From a phage, in the NCBI GenBank assembly GCA_025677605.1, contig GCA_025677605.1_4110.1: 64,000 bases of DNA; one strand, given 5' to 3'. A program made the position numbers and the translations under genes. This document shows, piece after piece, positions 51,376-56,058 of the stretch (the first letter of the stretch is position 1; each line of letters starts with the position of its first letter). The notes below the pieces were generated by a model, which had not been told where the DNA came from, made no database searches, and saw only the letters and a list, made by a program, of their open reading frames with translations.

Positions 51376-52509
51376 TTAAAACATTTGTTGAATTGCTTCA
51401 CAACGTAAAACTGAAACAAAATCACGGATTTCAGATGCTTCTAACTCACCGTCTTTTACCAGTTGTTGAATATCTGGAAGTACTACATCAGTGTAACGAT
51501 CATATACCTTAATGATTAAATCTTCAAGGTCTAAATCAATCTCTTTACGTAGAATAAAATATTCCAGTACTTTGTAAAGGAATTCTTCACCGCCGTTATT
51601 CTTGATATTCATATCCAGTAATAATTGTCCCATTTCATTTGGGGTCTTTTTACGGAATGCCTTGATATCATCACGGAAACGTTTGATGTAATTACTGAAT
51701 TTAACGTACTTAACGGGCATTTTAATAGCACCATTCAGTACTGAATCCTCACCAATTTCTTCTTTCTCAAGAAGCACAGACCATAAGAAATATGGCTTAT
51801 ATGCTTCAGTACAATTATCAGAGATATGATCAATGAGTTCCAATGACTTTTTGGTTAATGTAGCATTAAATGCTTTTTCATAGTAACCAAACTTACTTAG
51901 TGTTTTAAGGAACTTAGCTGGCTTTTCTTCTGACAGTGCTTTTTCAAATTCAACATAAACACGGTCTGGAACAAGGTGATTTAGCTCACCAGACGCTACC
52001 ATATCGATTGCAAGTGCTTCAGTAGTCTCGTGTATAGAGAAATCAGAATAACGCGTAGCAAAGCGAGCTAGACGTAATACACGCAATGGATCTTCTTTGA
52101 AGTGTTCGGATACATGACGTAGTACTTTATTCTTGATATCAGCTTTACCACCGTATGGGTCGATGTGAATTTGCAGTACTGGATCATACGCGATTGCATT
52201 AATTGTAAGATCACGACGATACAAATCTTGTTCCAGTGTTACACCTTTTGTATCCACTTCGAAGCCACCGTATCCAGTACCAGTTTTTCGTTCAGTACGG
52301 GCTAATGCGTGTTCGTTACCTTCTGGGCTTAGATAAACTGGAAAATCTTTACCAACCTGTTTATATCCAATACTTTCTAAGTATTTGATATCAGATTCAG
52401 TTGCACCAACAATGACATAATCTTTGTCCTTTGCACGAATGCCCATTAGACGGTCGCGGCAGTATCCACCAACAAGGTATTTTTTCATTCTTATTCTCCC
52501 ATCAACCAA
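51376..52509 (-). CDS. tRNA nucleotidyltransferase (CCA-adding enzyme family)
   Basis: Head-domain motifs GGYCRDRLMG...DKDYV, RRDLTINA, EDPLRVLRLARFA; likely true start MKKYLVGG. Confidence 0.85.
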   Translation of the reverse strand: MVDGRIRMKKYLVGGYCRDRLMGIRAKDKDYVIVGATESDIKYLESIGYKQVGKDFPVYLSPEGNEHALARTERKTGTGYGGFEVDTKGVTLEQDLYRRDLTINAIAYDPVLQIHIDPYGGKADIKNKVLRHVSEHFKEDPLRVLRLARFATRYSDFSIHETTEALAIDMVASGELNHLVPDRVYVEFEKALSEEKPAKFLKTLSKFGYYEKAFNATLTKKSLELIDHISDNCTEAYKPYFLWSVLLEKEEIGEDSVLNGAIKMPVKYVKFSNYIKRFRDDIKAFRKKTPNEMGQLLLDMNIKNNGGEEFLYKVLEYFILRKEIDLDLEDLIIKVYDRYTDVVLPDIQQLVKDGELEASEIRDFVSVLRCEAIQQMF

Positions 52510-52624: not shown

Positions 52625-53047
52625 TTAAATTAATCTGTCACGCAAGCGGGATTCATATTGTTTATGTATAGATAGTATATACTGAAATGAAGAATAGTCA
52701 ATACCAAATGTGTCATCAATGAACATATACTGGGCCAGTACTTCAGGTCCATCATCAACTACAGGCAATGAACCTGCTTTTTTTTCTAACACATTCCATG
52801 CAAACTCATCGGAAGTATCAAATCTATGGTATTGTAGTTCTATCTTACTTTTTCTTAGTATAATTAATAATTCATCACCATCATCATATGCATTACGGAT
52901 TTTAATACGTACTGTTCCTTGTAACTGGTTAGTATACATTACGCGATATTGGTTGTATGTGACTAAACCACGTCTTTCAGTACTGAACTCTTGTTCAGAA
53001 AAGTACTTTAACGTTTCGTTGAATTTGGGTATTTTAGTAACGTCCAA
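52625..53047 (-). CDS. Hypothetical protein, tandem paralog 1
   Basis: C-terminus AQYMFIDDTFGIDYSSFQYILSIHKQYE matches paralog 2. Confidence 0.6.
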   Translation of the reverse strand: MDVTKIPKFNETLKYFSEQEFSTERRGLVTYNQYRVMYTNQLQGTVRIKIRNAYDDGDELLIILRKSKIELQYHRFDTSDEFAWNVLEKKAGSLPVVDDGPEVLAQYMFIDDTFGIDYSSFQYILSIHKQYESRLRDRLI

Positions 53048-53450
53048 TTACGTAATCCTCATACTGTTCGTATACACGCATTATACTCTGATATGTCACA
53101 AAGTCAATACCAAAGGTATCATCAATGAACTGATATTGCATAAACTCTTCCTCGGTAGCACCAATAGGAAGTGTGCCGTTTCGTTGATCGTTTGATTGAA
53201 CATCTTCAATGTACATCAAACCTATACTTTCATCTAAAGTGATATCTATCATAAAAACATCTTCACTATAAAACATGTTATATGAACGGATGAAAAGATT
53301 ACCAGTTCTATCAAAACTTGATACATGTGTTTCAACGTAGGTTCTATCTAAACTAAAGAATAAACCAGTACCATCGGGTTTTCGTTGGTCTTTCAATTTA
53401 ATTTCGATAGCATCAAATATCGGTTTAATATTAAACTTTTTCATAAGCAA
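53034..53450 (-). CDS. Hypothetical protein, tandem paralog 2
   Basis: C-terminus MQYQFIDDTFGIDFVTYQSIMRVYEQYE matches paralog 1. Confidence 0.6.
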   Translation of the reverse strand: MLMKKFNIKPIFDAIEIKLKDQRKPDGTGLFFSLDRTYVETHVSSFDRTGNLFIRSYNMFYSEDVFMIDITLDESIGLMYIEDVQSNDQRNGTLPIGATEEEFMQYQFIDDTFGIDFVTYQSIMRVYEQYEDYVIGRY

Positions 53451-53642: not shown

Positions 53643-53729
53643 TAAAAAGTAATTATACATTTTATTGTACAATATAAAAAGGTCTTAAAAAGTAATTATA
53701 CATTTTATTGTACAATATAAAAAGGTCTT
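53643..53729. repeat. Perfect 43-bp tandem direct repeat (2 copies), each with palindrome TATTGTACAATA
   Basis: 53644-53686 and 53687-53729 are identical; overlaps the stop of gene 53662-54075 and the intergenic space before 53441-53629. Confidence 0.9.
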
Positions 53730-54075
53730 TCACATTATCATAAGTAATGTTAGATAGATCATAAATCAATGATAACTGAAAAAATGAAGCTTCGTCTATA
53801 TCTACTGGGATTATAACATCATCATCTTCTGCCATTTTATTATCGTAGTATTTTATGTGGTCTTCATTAAACTCAATAGAGATTGATACTGCGTTGGATT
53901 TCATATCTTCAATTAATCCAATCAAATTAGATTTATCATTAATAAAAAATCCAATTCCAACCCTACGGTCCTCTGGATATGGATAGTACCATCTATTAAA
54001 TACTAGACTATCTGGTAAATCAACATCATGTGTTGATACGAGAGATTTTACAATTTCCATCCAAGCATAATTCAT
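53662..54075 (-). CDS. Hypothetical protein
   Basis: 137-aa ORF whose last ~20 codons are encoded by the 43-bp repeat. Confidence 0.6.
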   Translation of the reverse strand: MNYAWMEIVKSLVSTHDVDLPDSLVFNRWYYPYPEDRRVGIGFFINDKSNLIGLIEDMKSNAVSISIEFNEDHIKYYDNKMAEDDDVIIPVDIDEASFFQLSLIYDLSNITYDNVKDLFILYNKMYNYFLRPFYIVQ

Positions 54076-54094
54076 AATTAAAACTCCATAAGAA

Positions 54095-54122
54095 AAGGGA
54101 CAGAATTAATCTGTCCCTTTAT
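54095..54122 (-). terminator. Intrinsic terminator
   Basis: GGGACAG-AATTAAT-CTGTCCC hairpin followed by a U-tract on the minus-strand transcript. Confidence 0.65.
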
Positions 54123-54126
54123 TATA

Positions 54127-54459
54127 TTACTCTTCTTCGTCAGTTACATCAACTACAACTGGACGGTCTGGATGGTTTCGGCGGTGCAATTTAATGCTTT
54201 TGTCTTTACTGAATACAGTTTCCATTTTTTCGAATGAATCGACAATCGCCTTGTATAAATCTGCATCATCGGCAGTAACAGACTTACCACCTGATGTTAA
54301 AGTTACTGCGTACTGTGTCTTATGCTCTTTTTTCACATGAACACCAATATTCAGTACTGAAGAATCACTAAATTTATTTAGAGTGTTTGCTTCTTGATGA
54401 ATTGCGTCATGGATTGCTGGAGTAATATCAACATTACCTTGAATAACTAGATTTAGCAT
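54127..54459 (-). CDS. Ribosome hibernation promoting factor-like protein (HPF/YfiA/RaiA family)
   Basis: 110 aa colinear with bacterial HPF: MLNLVIQGNVDITPAIHDAI vs MQLNITGNNVEITEALREFV, then VHVKKEH...TLTSGGKSV...DLYKAIVDSFEKME. Confidence 0.8.
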   Translation of the reverse strand: MLNLVIQGNVDITPAIHDAIHQEANTLNKFSDSSVLNIGVHVKKEHKTQYAVTLTSGGKSVTADDADLYKAIVDSFEKMETVFSKDKSIKLHRRNHPDRPVVVDVTDEEE

Positions 54460-54473
54460 ACTTCACCTTCCTT

Positions 54474-55400
54474 TTAGATTGAGCTTAACAAAGTATCCGC
54501 TCTGTTTGTTACTTGCCTATACCATAAGGAATTTTTGATTTCTCTTTTAAACTTCTTATGATTTTCAGCTTCAGCACTTCTCCATAGTTTATTAAATGAG
54601 GCCAACTTATCAACACCCATCGTGTAAGCCATGTCAAAGAGAATACGTTGTTGGTCTTTTGTAAGATTTACTGCATTTTTTTTCTTCATTAGAGTTGTAA
54701 AGTCATTATATGTCCTTTTCAAATCTTGAAGTAATAGTTTATGTGCTTGTGCGTTGGTAATACCGTTTCTGTACTTAATTGCATCAGATTCTTTCTTACC
54801 TAAGTAATGTCCATAACCTATTGTATAATTACCTTTCATATCCTTATAAGGATGAAATTTTGAATTGTAGAAAGGAACTCCAACTTTTCCCCCAAGTAAA
54901 CGTCTTTTGTTCTTGGACTGAAATTCAATTGAACCTTCAGCTTCTTTGATGTGTGCTACTATTTCAGGATCATTATAATCGAAAAGTACTACCACATCAG
55001 GTAACAGTACGTCTTTCAAATCCTCTTTTGTTGGGATAAAGATACCCTGCGATGTATGAAGTTTAGCATTAAGATTGATATTCTTCAATACTGTAACGTA
55101 ATCTTCAAACAACACATTATGCGGTTTAAACTTCTTAGCTATCGAATGATAACTATCACCGTATTCAACAGTATAATGTTTCTCGCTGCCTGGAACTACT
55201 TTAGGTGTATACCCTTTAGGTAATTCCTGCTTTTGAATTTGTGTAACTTGCGGTTTTAAATTGTGCACCTGACTTTCGCCCGATGATGATGCACGATCAT
55301 GTTGAGAAAAACCATAAAATCCAAACGCAGCGATGATAACAAGTGAAACTAATAAGCCTATAGCTGTCTTAGTTTTAGGTGTTTGTATCGCTATTGTCAA
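54474..55400 (-). CDS. Endolysin: N-terminal signal-anchor, LysM, T4-lysozyme-like (GH24) domain
   Basis: Hydrophobic anchor GLLVSLVIIAAFGFYGF; LysM-like HYTVEYGDSYHSIAKKF; GNYTIGYGH and LWYRQVTNRADTLL match T4 lysozyme YYTIGIGH and RWYNQTPNRAKRVI. Confidence 0.85.
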   Translation of the reverse strand: MTIAIQTPKTKTAIGLLVSLVIIAAFGFYGFSQHDRASSSGESQVHNLKPQVTQIQKQELPKGYTPKVVPGSEKHYTVEYGDSYHSIAKKFKPHNVLFEDYVTVLKNINLNAKLHTSQGIFIPTKEDLKDVLLPDVVVLFDYNDPEIVAHIKEAEGSIEFQSKNKRRLLGGKVGVPFYNSKFHPYKDMKGNYTIGYGHYLGKKESDAIKYRNGITNAQAHKLLLQDLKRTYNDFTTLMKKKNAVNLTKDQQRILFDMAYTMGVDKLASFNKLWRSAEAENHKKFKREIKNSLWYRQVTNRADTLLSSI

Positions 55401-55533
55401 AAACGCCTCCTTTGTTTGCGTGTTATGATGAGCAATTACAAAGAGGGCTTATGAGGCCATTTGCAAAAGCCTCATCGGACTTTCTACAATACTTTCAGTA
55501 CTGAAAAGGTAACTTTCATTCTGTACATGTAAG

Positions 55534-55562
55534 TAGTATAGCATCTTTCAATTTCATATCAA
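55534..55562 (-). promoter_or_regulatory. Putative sigma70-type promoter (TTGATA-16nt-TATACT)
   Basis: Minus strand reads TTGATA, 16-nt spacer, TATACT; the 14-bp palindrome TTTCAGTACTGAAA (55493-55506) lies in the predicted leader. Confidence 0.4.
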
Positions 55563-55647
55563 GTAAAATCTTGATATTTCTTTTGGTTATAATTATGGGT
55601 ATATTAATACCCATTTTATTTAGCCAATTGTATGACAAACCTATAGG

Positions 55648-56058
55648 TTAGTCGTAGTACGTTCTCCCTACTGTGAGGTGATAACGTAAGTACTTTGATT
55701 GTAATCCTAGTTCATTGCGAATGTGTCCAATGAATTCATCATCGAACTCTATGATAAAGAACGAGCCTGGTTTCTTTTTATCTTTCACTTGAACAATATC
55801 AGGATTGAATTTTATTTTAATTTTTTGACCATCGTACTTTTTCCAGTACTCTGGATTTGGTGGCACTTCACCTCGAACAATACTGACGTGTGCTCCCCAT
55901 TGTGGGTCTTTAACATCAATGTGTAGATCAGTTCTGATGAAGTACTGGTAGTATCTAACCAACTGTAATGGAAGTTGCAGTACTAACCAGAAGTCCTTCT
56001 TCTTTTTCATAGTGCCACGGTCTGGATCATACACCAGAGTTCCTTCCATTTCAATCAT
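55648..56058 (-). CDS. Hypothetical protein
   Basis: 136-aa ORF. Confidence 0.6.
   Translation of the reverse strand: MIEMEGTLVYDPDRGTMKKKKDFWLVLQLPLQLVRYYQYFIRTDLHIDVKDPQWGAHVSIVRGEVPPNPEYWKKYDGQKIKIKFNPDIVQVKDKKKPGSFFIIEFDDEFIGHIRNELGLQSKYLRYHLTVGRTYYD

Follow-up and report, generated by a model that had tools for sequence, protein, structure and literature searches.

Does a jumbo phage of Escherichia coli carry its own ribosome hibernation factor and, if so, which of the bacterial types does it resemble? The question is raised by a short gene in a 64,000-nucleotide stretch of phage DNA (contig GCA_025677605.1_4110.1 of assembly GCA_025677605.1; the whole stretch is referred to as the window). 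The window shares 99.3% identity with Escherichia phage A4 (ON286972.1), a jumbo phage that belongs to the genus Asteriusvirus, has a genome of 355,528 bp and was isolated on E. coli LF82. We find that the gene encodes a member of the HPF/RaiA superfamily that is under purifying selection, and we propose that its product would act on vacant host ribosomes. The gene and its Shine-Dalgarno sequence are placed in the window as follows:

54127 to 54459, minus strand: HPF/RaiA-like coding sequence, 110 amino acids plus stop codon (open reading frame (ORF), Pfam, AlphaFold2, Foldseek, orthologue alignment and dN/dS, the ratio of nonsynonymous to synonymous substitution rates).
About 54463 to 54473, minus strand: strong Shine-Dalgarno sequence AAGGAAGGTGA of the HPF/RaiA-like gene, read from the sequence.

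The reading frame extends from an ATG start codon (54459 to 54457) to a TAA stop codon (54129 to 54127). This confirms the 110-residue ORF at 54127 to 54459 that a first-pass annotation of this DNA had proposed, and adds the minus strand, which that annotation had not given. The gap between the stop codon of the preceding lysozyme gene (54474 to 54476) and the HPF/RaiA-like start codon is only 14 nucleotides long and holds AAGGAAGGTGA, which is also kept in phages slurp01 and SD-15_S21. The A4 GenBank record lists the gene as A4_529, "putative sigma factor / putative sigma 54".

To the extent that sequence and a predicted structure can show it, the protein is a member of the HPF/RaiA superfamily. 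The Pfam profile PF02482 (Ribosomal_S30AE) matches residues 8–87 of the A4 protein (profile positions 5–84 of 88) with 40.8 bits, compared to a gathering score of 23.7 (E 3.8e-10), and a precomputed PF02482 match is present in 13 of 13 close homologues. Searches of the Protein Data Bank (PDB) with the single protein (phmmer, best E 5e-7) or with a profile of 11 orthologues (best E 9e-9) returned only HPF, RaiA, YfiA or protein Y at E <= 0.01. In PHROGs, the protein falls in phrog_34864 ("unknown function", E 3.5e-52), with a weaker match to phrog_8990, "sigma 54 modulation protein/ribosomal protein S30EA".

The AlphaFold2 model has a mean pLDDT (predicted local distance difference test) score of 74.7, with values of 77–90 in the core and low confidence for residues 88–110, which are predicted to be disordered. 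The predicted topology is β-α-β-β-β-α, a four-stranded sheet packed against two helices (β1 2–8, α1 14–30, β2 36–44, β3 50–56, β4 59–65, α2 68–93), with the core domain comprising residues 1–94. When the model was compared to the PDB with Foldseek, the top 38 matches were all HPF, RaiA or protein Y, most of them from ribosome complexes, with E down to 5.7e-7 and a target-normalised TM (template modelling) score of up to 0.79 (E. coli HPF, 6h4n). The first-pass annotation had assigned the product to the HPF/YfiA family and named structure prediction as a check. The assignment is borne out by the Pfam score, the PDB profile search and the Foldseek result, and the predicted fold matches HPF/RaiA.

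The subtype is less readily read from profile scores. The NCBIfam equivalogs offer no discrimination between HPF and RaiA (20 versus 17 bits), and on sequence grounds the A4 protein is not an orthologue of enterobacterial RaiA, the A4 clade being a divergent member of the superfamily. No second domain beyond the HPF/RaiA core was found by Pfam or in the AlphaFold2 model of the 110 residues. The long HPF subtype was rejected, as the protein lacks a C-terminal dimerisation domain and long HPFs measure approximately 180–190 amino acids. The short HPF (YhbH) subtype was also rejected, given the presence of a tail, a length of 110 rather than ~95 amino acids and a score below the cut-off of the HPF equivalog NF007780. 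A sub-threshold match to dodecin (PF07311, 20.5 bits with a cut-off of 22.5) covers residues 9–55 only, and the NCBIfam dodecin equivalogs score 14–15 bits with cut-offs of 75–100; dodecin was rejected.

The product had been described in the first-pass annotation as aligning along its length with bacterial HPF. The similarity itself stands, while the whole-length part of the claim does not: profile alignments cover approximately residues 3–97, and BLASTP finds 24% identity over 79 residues with E. coli RaiA but no meaningful alignment with E. coli HPF (both E. coli sequences were verified against PDB chains). Whole-length alignment with short HPF fails because the last ~16 residues form a RaiA-type tail that has no counterpart in the 95-residue E. 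coli HPF. Beyond helix 2, the A4 protein has a tail of 16 residues with a net charge of -5, compared to 17 residues and -5 in RaiA and none in E. coli HPF. The end of the protein consists of an invariant R93-R94 pair, which the multiple alignment places opposite R95-R96 of RaiA, followed by a variable linker (95–103) and a conserved acidic segment (104–110, DVTDEEE). Within the phage clade D104, E109 and E110 show no variation and L105 and T106 almost none, with the linker variable in sequence and containing insertions and deletions. An end motif of the form hydrophobic-Asp-hydrophobic-Thr/Gly-Glu recurs in phage Munch (IDLTESDE), phage Hallingskeid (FDLTEDNE) and the rV5-type proteins (IDFGE). 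A net acidic C-terminus was seen in 23 of 42 short (<=125 amino acids) homologues from the exhaustive search described below, though the tail was part of the query profile, which biases this sample.

A cryo-electron microscopy preprint reports that R95 and R96 of YfiA contact 16S rRNA and uS7, and that the tail of YfiA extends in the direction of the RMF site, with its last 12 residues unresolved (bioRxiv 10.1101/2025.10.07.680626). The arrangement of the A4 protein, as judged from the alignment, is RaiA-type and not HPF-type, and this RaiA-like architecture makes promotion of 100S dimers the less likely outcome. E. coli RaiA (YfiA, protein Y; 113 amino acids; 1N3G, 4V8I) has the same fold, a similar length, an Arg-Arg pair at the end of helix 2 and a comparable tail end (FVEEVEEE), and both proteins have an aromatic residue at position 30, a threonine at position 53 and a basic track along helix 2. 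The two nonetheless differ in overall identity, in the RaiA equivalog score (17 versus 158) and at R17, K26, R83 and K91, which are not kept. Furthermore, the A4 gene is phage-encoded and follows a lysozyme gene, presumably without the stationary-phase and cold-shock control of the host gene. E. coli short HPF (YhbH; 95 amino acids; 2RQL, 6H4N) has the core fold in common (TM 0.79) and a similar core charge (A4 0, HPF -1), but has no C-terminal tail and forms 100S together with RMF. The best sequence and structure matches are to the N-terminal domain of long HPFs (T. thermophilus 6GZX/2YWQ, Listeria 8UU7, B. subtilis 5NJT), and the T. thermophilus protein shares with A4 the motif 'DADLY-AI...[KR][LM]ET' at the start of helix 2. 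In contrast to the A4 protein, long HPFs carry a C-terminal dimerisation domain and form 100S unaided.

Recurrent contacts of HPF/YfiA proteins with the ribosome include the aromatic residue 30, which stacks on A790, Thr53 and β4 residues at m2G966, and a basic track on helix 2 (positions 80, 83, 87, 91 and 95), of which Arg83 lies at m4C1402 (bioRxiv 10.1101/2025.10.07.680626). The A4 protein retains F30 (W30 in RaiA, Y30 in HPF), T53, K78 (position 80), K85 (position 87) and R93/R94 (positions 95/96), and has T81 in place of R83 and I89 in place of K91, with K87 and K90 nearby; at approximately 25% identity, this alignment may be shifted by one or two positions. In the HMMER alignment, T. 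thermophilus HPF also has a threonine at the R83 position ('DRLETQ' versus 'EKMETV'). A ribosome-bound structure of this protein exists (6GZX), and a missing Arg83 therefore does not disqualify the A4 protein.

The gene is under purifying selection. Pairwise dN/dS values (Nei-Gojobori) among six Asteriusvirus orthologues are 0.12–0.27, close to the 0.11–0.21 obtained for the adjacent lysozyme gene. In an alignment of 11 orthologues that are 60–83% identical to A4, 11 of the 12 core lysine and arginine positions are invariant, compared to 24 of the 82 other core positions (Fisher's exact p = 5e-5, a value that overstates independence because the sequences are related). Acidic core residues are not enriched among the invariant positions of the same alignment. 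The invariance of the basic residues is the pattern expected of a conserved nucleic-acid-binding surface. As a separate observation, slurp01 and 121Q differ little in the lysozyme gene (dS 0.011), while the adjacent HPF/RaiA-like gene has a dS of 0.55 and a dN of 0.08. This contrast implies a recombination breakpoint between both genes, with exchange of HPF/RaiA-like alleles among Asteriusvirus lineages.

A word-indexed homologue search gave close orthologues only, and hence 1.84 billion cluster representatives were searched exhaustively with HMMER. This found just 64 proteins at E <= 1e-3. The nearest outside the A4 cluster are P0016–P0019 (E 7e-14 to 2e-9, ~105 amino acids); contigs of jumbo-phage size (258–351 kb) occur in at least two of these clusters, and P0016 and P0019 are 73% and 56% identical, respectively, to the proteins of phages Munch, 7t3, SE_PL and fENko-Kae01. 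A 1605-residue match, P0015 (E 2.7e-32), proved to be a tandem-repeat artefact with ~29 copies of a 54-residue unit giving weak partial matches, and was discarded. Named phages with a related protein include the Erwinia phage Hallingskeid (44.5% identical to the A4 protein) and the Salmonella phage Munch (33.6%). The protein of Cronobacter jumbo phage GAP32 was found as a structural match to the A4 model, with TM 0.8 at 18% identity.

The surrounding gene order runs from the lysozyme gene through the HPF/RaiA-like gene, a terminator and a variable number of small paralogous ORFs to genes for a CCA-adding tRNA nucleotidyltransferase, a Nudix hydrolase and a glutaredoxin/thioredoxin. It is kept in 121Q, EJP2, slurp01, vB_Ec-M-J, Turkey5, Hallingskeid and Munch, with proteins only 33–45% identical at the Hallingskeid/Munch distance. 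This conservation across divergent jumbo phages points to an old phage gene and not a recent capture. The rV5-type HPFs of the Vequintavirinae (105–106 amino acids) belong to the same superfamily and have a C-terminal extension ending in I-D-F-G-E. However, they are ~44% identical to E. coli HPF and lie in an unrelated gene context, while the A4 type is at most 24% identical to host proteins. At ~44% identity to its E. coli counterpart, the rV5-type HPF looks like a recent capture from the host. The A4 type has its own PHROG, phrog_34864, and a gene order inherited across divergent jumbo phages, whereas phrog_8990 collects phage S30EA proteins.

On balance, we consider it somewhat probable that the A4 protein is a RaiA-like factor that binds vacant host 30S/70S ribosomes at the decoding cleft and gives rise to protected 70S monosomes without 100S formation. 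In the proposed mechanism, the β-α-β-β-β-α core would dock onto vacant host 30S/70S ribosomes, in the cleft that separates head and body, through a surface of conserved, mainly basic residues (K29/F30, the KKEHK loop between β2 and β3, T53, and K78, K85, K87, R93 and R94 of α2). The docked protein would overlap the A- and P-site tRNA and the mRNA positions, and the C-terminal extension would run towards the RMF site near the anti-Shine-Dalgarno, as it does in RaiA. The tail would thereby disfavour RMF-dependent 100S formation, and the outcome would be inactive, nuclease-protected 70S monosomes rather than dimers driven by RMF and HPF. The phage would probably benefit by having the host's ribosomes preserved for further use over the course of a long infection, in gut E. 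coli that grow slowly or are in stationary phase.

Several results weigh against this proposal. The protein scores 34.8 bits with the NCBIfam HPF/YfiA family model TIGR00741, below the cut-off of 40.9 that its Munch-clade relatives P0016 (57.2 bits) and P0019 (50.8 bits) pass, and it falls far short of the equivalogs for RaiA (NF007654, 17.3 bits versus 158) and HPF (NF007780, 20.1 bits versus 125). Several basic residues kept in both E. coli HPF and RaiA have been substituted (R17 by H, K26 by T, R83 by T, K91 by I), and the net charge of the core is 0, compared to +3 in RaiA, although that of E. coli HPF is -1. The gene is partial in four Asteriusvirus records propagated on Salmonella (SD-15_S21, SD-1_S14, SD-2_S15 and SD-6_S16). 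SD-15_S21 (2501 to 2725) carries a clean in-frame deletion of 108 bp that removes residues ~22–57, and these deletions suggest the gene is dispensable for laboratory growth. When the rV5 HPF was expressed in E. coli, it was absent from 70S and 100S purified in high salt and the 100S level was unchanged (PMC6375957); this is the only phage HPF to have been tested, and belongs to a different, more host-like lineage than the A4 type. A literature search found no functional tests of phage HPFs beyond that 2019 study and no Asteriusvirus transcriptome. The deletions in the SD records reflect either natural gene loss or a problem of assembly quality. The Salmonella-propagated isolates have smaller genomes (310–326 kb), and in SD-15_S21 the lysozyme beside the HPF/RaiA-like gene is annotated as split ORFs.

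The same binding site could serve the opposite end, and we regard this as rather unlikely. The protein would then act as an anti-hibernation decoy, occupying the HPF/RaiA site or blocking RMF with its tail and so preventing or reversing host 100S formation; weak binding, or binding that is displaceable (for example by a phage IF3), would free stationary-phase ribosomes, such that phage translation is stimulated and not silenced. The idea was put forward for phage HPFs by Mizuno et al., in whose hands high-salt washes left no rV5 HPF on the ribosomes (PMC6375957). A RaiA-type tail fits antagonism of RMF and 100S, and the R83 to T and K91 to I replacements would fit weaker, reversible binding, but T. 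thermophilus HPF binds stably with a threonine at the R83 position. The genus does encode an IF3 of its own (Sharanji, PMC11895373), though neither an IF3 nor an RMF homologue was found within the window. It is also unlikely, and a little more so, that the HPF/RaiA fold has been kept while its target has become another RNA or protein, such as phage mRNA, tRNA or a host defence factor. Such a shift would be in keeping with the missed TIGR00741 cut-off, the identity of <=24% to host proteins, the weak sub-threshold dodecin similarity and the failure to find rV5 HPF on ribosomes, as well as with the scarcity of relatives (64 at E <= 1e-3 in 1.8 billion representatives, the nearest all from jumbo-phage-sized contigs). 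Against this, all significant sequence and structure matches are to ribosome-binding HPF/RaiA proteins, the strongest constraint falls on basic residues in the elements that contact 16S rRNA in the bacterial homologues, and the RR motif and acidic tail are kept as in RaiA.

A role in host shut-off is very unlikely. An early protein made in excess would have to block initiation on free 30S/70S while phage messages escape through some feature of their own. HPF/RaiA proteins do occlude both the A site and the P site, and the sigma-70-like extended -10 promoter described below would permit transcription by unmodified host RNA polymerase; that promoter is, however, a consensus match only, the gene is dispensable, and no feature allowing selective escape was found. 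HPF/RaiA proteins moreover bind only vacant ribosomes and are blind to whether an mRNA is of host or phage origin. The remaining reading, a sigma factor or modulator of sigma-54 as in the A4 GenBank record, is effectively refuted by the domain and fold results: neither Pfam nor NCBIfam finds a sigma-factor domain, and the fold is that of HPF/RaiA. All that speaks for it is the historical PF02482 name, 'Sigma 54 modulation protein', which is a legacy of the position of the gene in the rpoN operon and not of a demonstrated activity. The label "putative sigma factor" of A4_529 is a legacy misnomer, and the correct name is "HPF/RaiA family".

Consideration of the flanking sequences places the gene at the end of a short transcription unit, with the following features:

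54474 to 55400, minus strand: lysozyme gene, 308 amino acids, N-terminal membrane anchor, TTG start (PF00959, E 2.5e-12; PHROG endolysin and tail-lysozyme families).
54085 to 54123, minus strand: intrinsic-terminator-like hairpin GGGACAGA-TTAAT-TCTGTCCC followed by TTTTCTT (scan match at 54094 to 54120, GC-rich).
55535 to 55562, minus strand: candidate sigma-70-type promoter with extended -10 (TTGATA-16-TGcTATACT), from a consensus scan.

The lysozyme gene is probably co-transcribed with the downstream HPF/RaiA-like gene, and the adjacency of both is kept in 121Q, EJP2, slurp01, vB_Ec-M-J, Turkey5 and Hallingskeid. Munch has one extra gene, preceded by a terminator, between the two. Directly 3' of the HPF/RaiA-like stop codon, the hairpin is the predicted terminator of the unit. 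Its stem is preserved by compensatory changes in EJP2, Hallingskeid and Munch (GGGACAGA/TCTGTCCC in A4, GGAAGCC/GGCTTCC in EJP2 and GGGCAGCC/GGCTGTCC in Hallingskeid) and the T-run is invariant; the Munch record itself annotates a terminator at the corresponding hairpin. A TATAAT-like box, TAATATAATA (54120 to 54127, minus strand), lies between stop codon and hairpin and is conserved from A4 to Munch. It is either a promoter element for the small ORFs downstream or only the AT-rich flank of the terminator.

The -10 box of the candidate promoter is conserved in five Asteriusvirus genomes. It does not recur as a repeated phage motif in the window, and no early or late class could be assigned from promoters. 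Upstream of the lysozyme gene is a conserved leader (55401 to 55647, minus strand) that contains this promoter, followed by a GTAGAAAGTCC box, which is invariant, and by a hairpin, GAGGC...GCCTC. The fold predicted for the leader (z = -2.45) allows its segment GCCCTCTTTGT to pair with the lysozyme Shine-Dalgarno sequence ACAAAGGAGGC, and this pairing may gate translation of the lysozyme. An Rfam scan of 53900 to 55700, including the leader, gave nothing significant.

Further genes on either side of this unit are:

51376 to 52509, minus strand: CCA-adding tRNA nucleotidyltransferase (PolyA_pol head and RNA-binding domains), found beside this block in all related jumbo phages.
52625 to 53047, minus strand: small ORF of 137–140 amino acids (phrog_20693) with an F-I-D-D-T-F-G-I-D motif.
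53034 to 53450, minus strand: small ORF of 137–140 amino acids (phrog_20693) with the same F-I-D-D-T-F-G-I-D motif, a paralogue of the preceding one.
53662 to 54075, minus strand: small ORF of 137–140 amino acids (phrog_36582).
55648 to 56058, minus strand: candidate 2H phosphoesterase of 136 amino acids in which H-x-[ST]-x occurs twice (GAHVSIVRG and RYHLTVGR).

The three small ORFs occupy the slot between the HPF/RaiA-like gene and the CCA-adding enzyme. Their number differs among related phages, and the slot has the look of a gene array that grows and shrinks. A pair of H-x-[ST]-x motifs is the signature of 2H phosphoesterases (LigT-like RNA repair/cyclic phosphodiesterase enzymes). The ORF that carries them has no Pfam match and falls in phrog_12204 ("unknown function"); with the CCA-adding enzyme and a macro-domain gene close by, it may be part of an RNA-repair set. 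No tRNA genes were found in the window. Taken as a whole, the neighbourhood (the CCA-adding enzyme, two Nudix genes, a macro-domain protein and the candidate 2H phosphoesterase, with an RNA ligase upstream in Hallingskeid) lends weak circumstantial support to a role in keeping the translation apparatus intact.

The identification of an HPF/RaiA protein in A4 is correct but already known as annotation. The 121Q and PBECO4 orthologues appear in RefSeq as "HPF/RaiA family ribosome-associated protein", the PBECO4 copy is a "Ribosomal subunit interface protein" in UniProt, and other depositors have used "ribosome-associated inhibitor A", "ribosome hibernation promoting factor" or "S30EA". In the genome paper on Sharanji, a phage of the same genus, the orthologue is counted as a translation factor alongside IF3 and a tRNA deaminase (PMC11895373). 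Mizuno et al. had described HPF homologues in rV5-like phages and in GAP32 (111 amino acids) in 2019, proposing that phage HPFs compete with the cellular HPF (PMC6375957). The text of the phAPEC6 virion proteome mentions no ribosome-associated protein, and a lysozyme of the neighbouring type (Gp293) was undetected there. In view of these names and the 2019 publication, the case for novelty made in the first-pass annotation was overstated, as was its remark that few phages are known to encode ribosome-binding factors: at least 170 of 50,697 phage records contain a member of the HPF/RaiA family. By tblastn, the A4-type protein occurs in 43 of these and the E. coli HPF type in 130, a few of the latter being bacterial contigs or fragments misfiled as phage. 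The useful outcomes are modest.

As to function, a RaiA-type protein is expected to antagonise RMF and 100S formation and to protect 70S, not to promote 100S. The A4 clade is older and more phage-adapted than the host-like rV5 HPF, and is the better candidate for functional work. A more far-reaching and doubtful reading is that the jumbo-phage clade forms a distinct functional class of RaiA-like proteins, in which the end motif is a docking peptide that blocks RMF and holds host ribosomes in the 70S monosome state, from which phage factors such as IF3 could selectively re-open them. The motif that could serve as this peptide, hydrophobic-Asp-hydrophobic-Thr-Glu followed by Glu-Glu, is found in the Asteriusvirus, Munch-like and Hallingskeid proteins and is shorter in the rV5 type. 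If this were true, the licensing of host ribosomes in stationary phase would be under phage control, which goes beyond simple hibernation. Should ribosome binding itself hold, the A4 protein would represent a second route by which jumbo phages reach the translation machinery, besides the ribosome-associated proteins of the PhiKZ type, and it could help to account for the replication of large, slow phages in gut E. coli that are short of nutrients and whose ribosomes are hibernating or being degraded.

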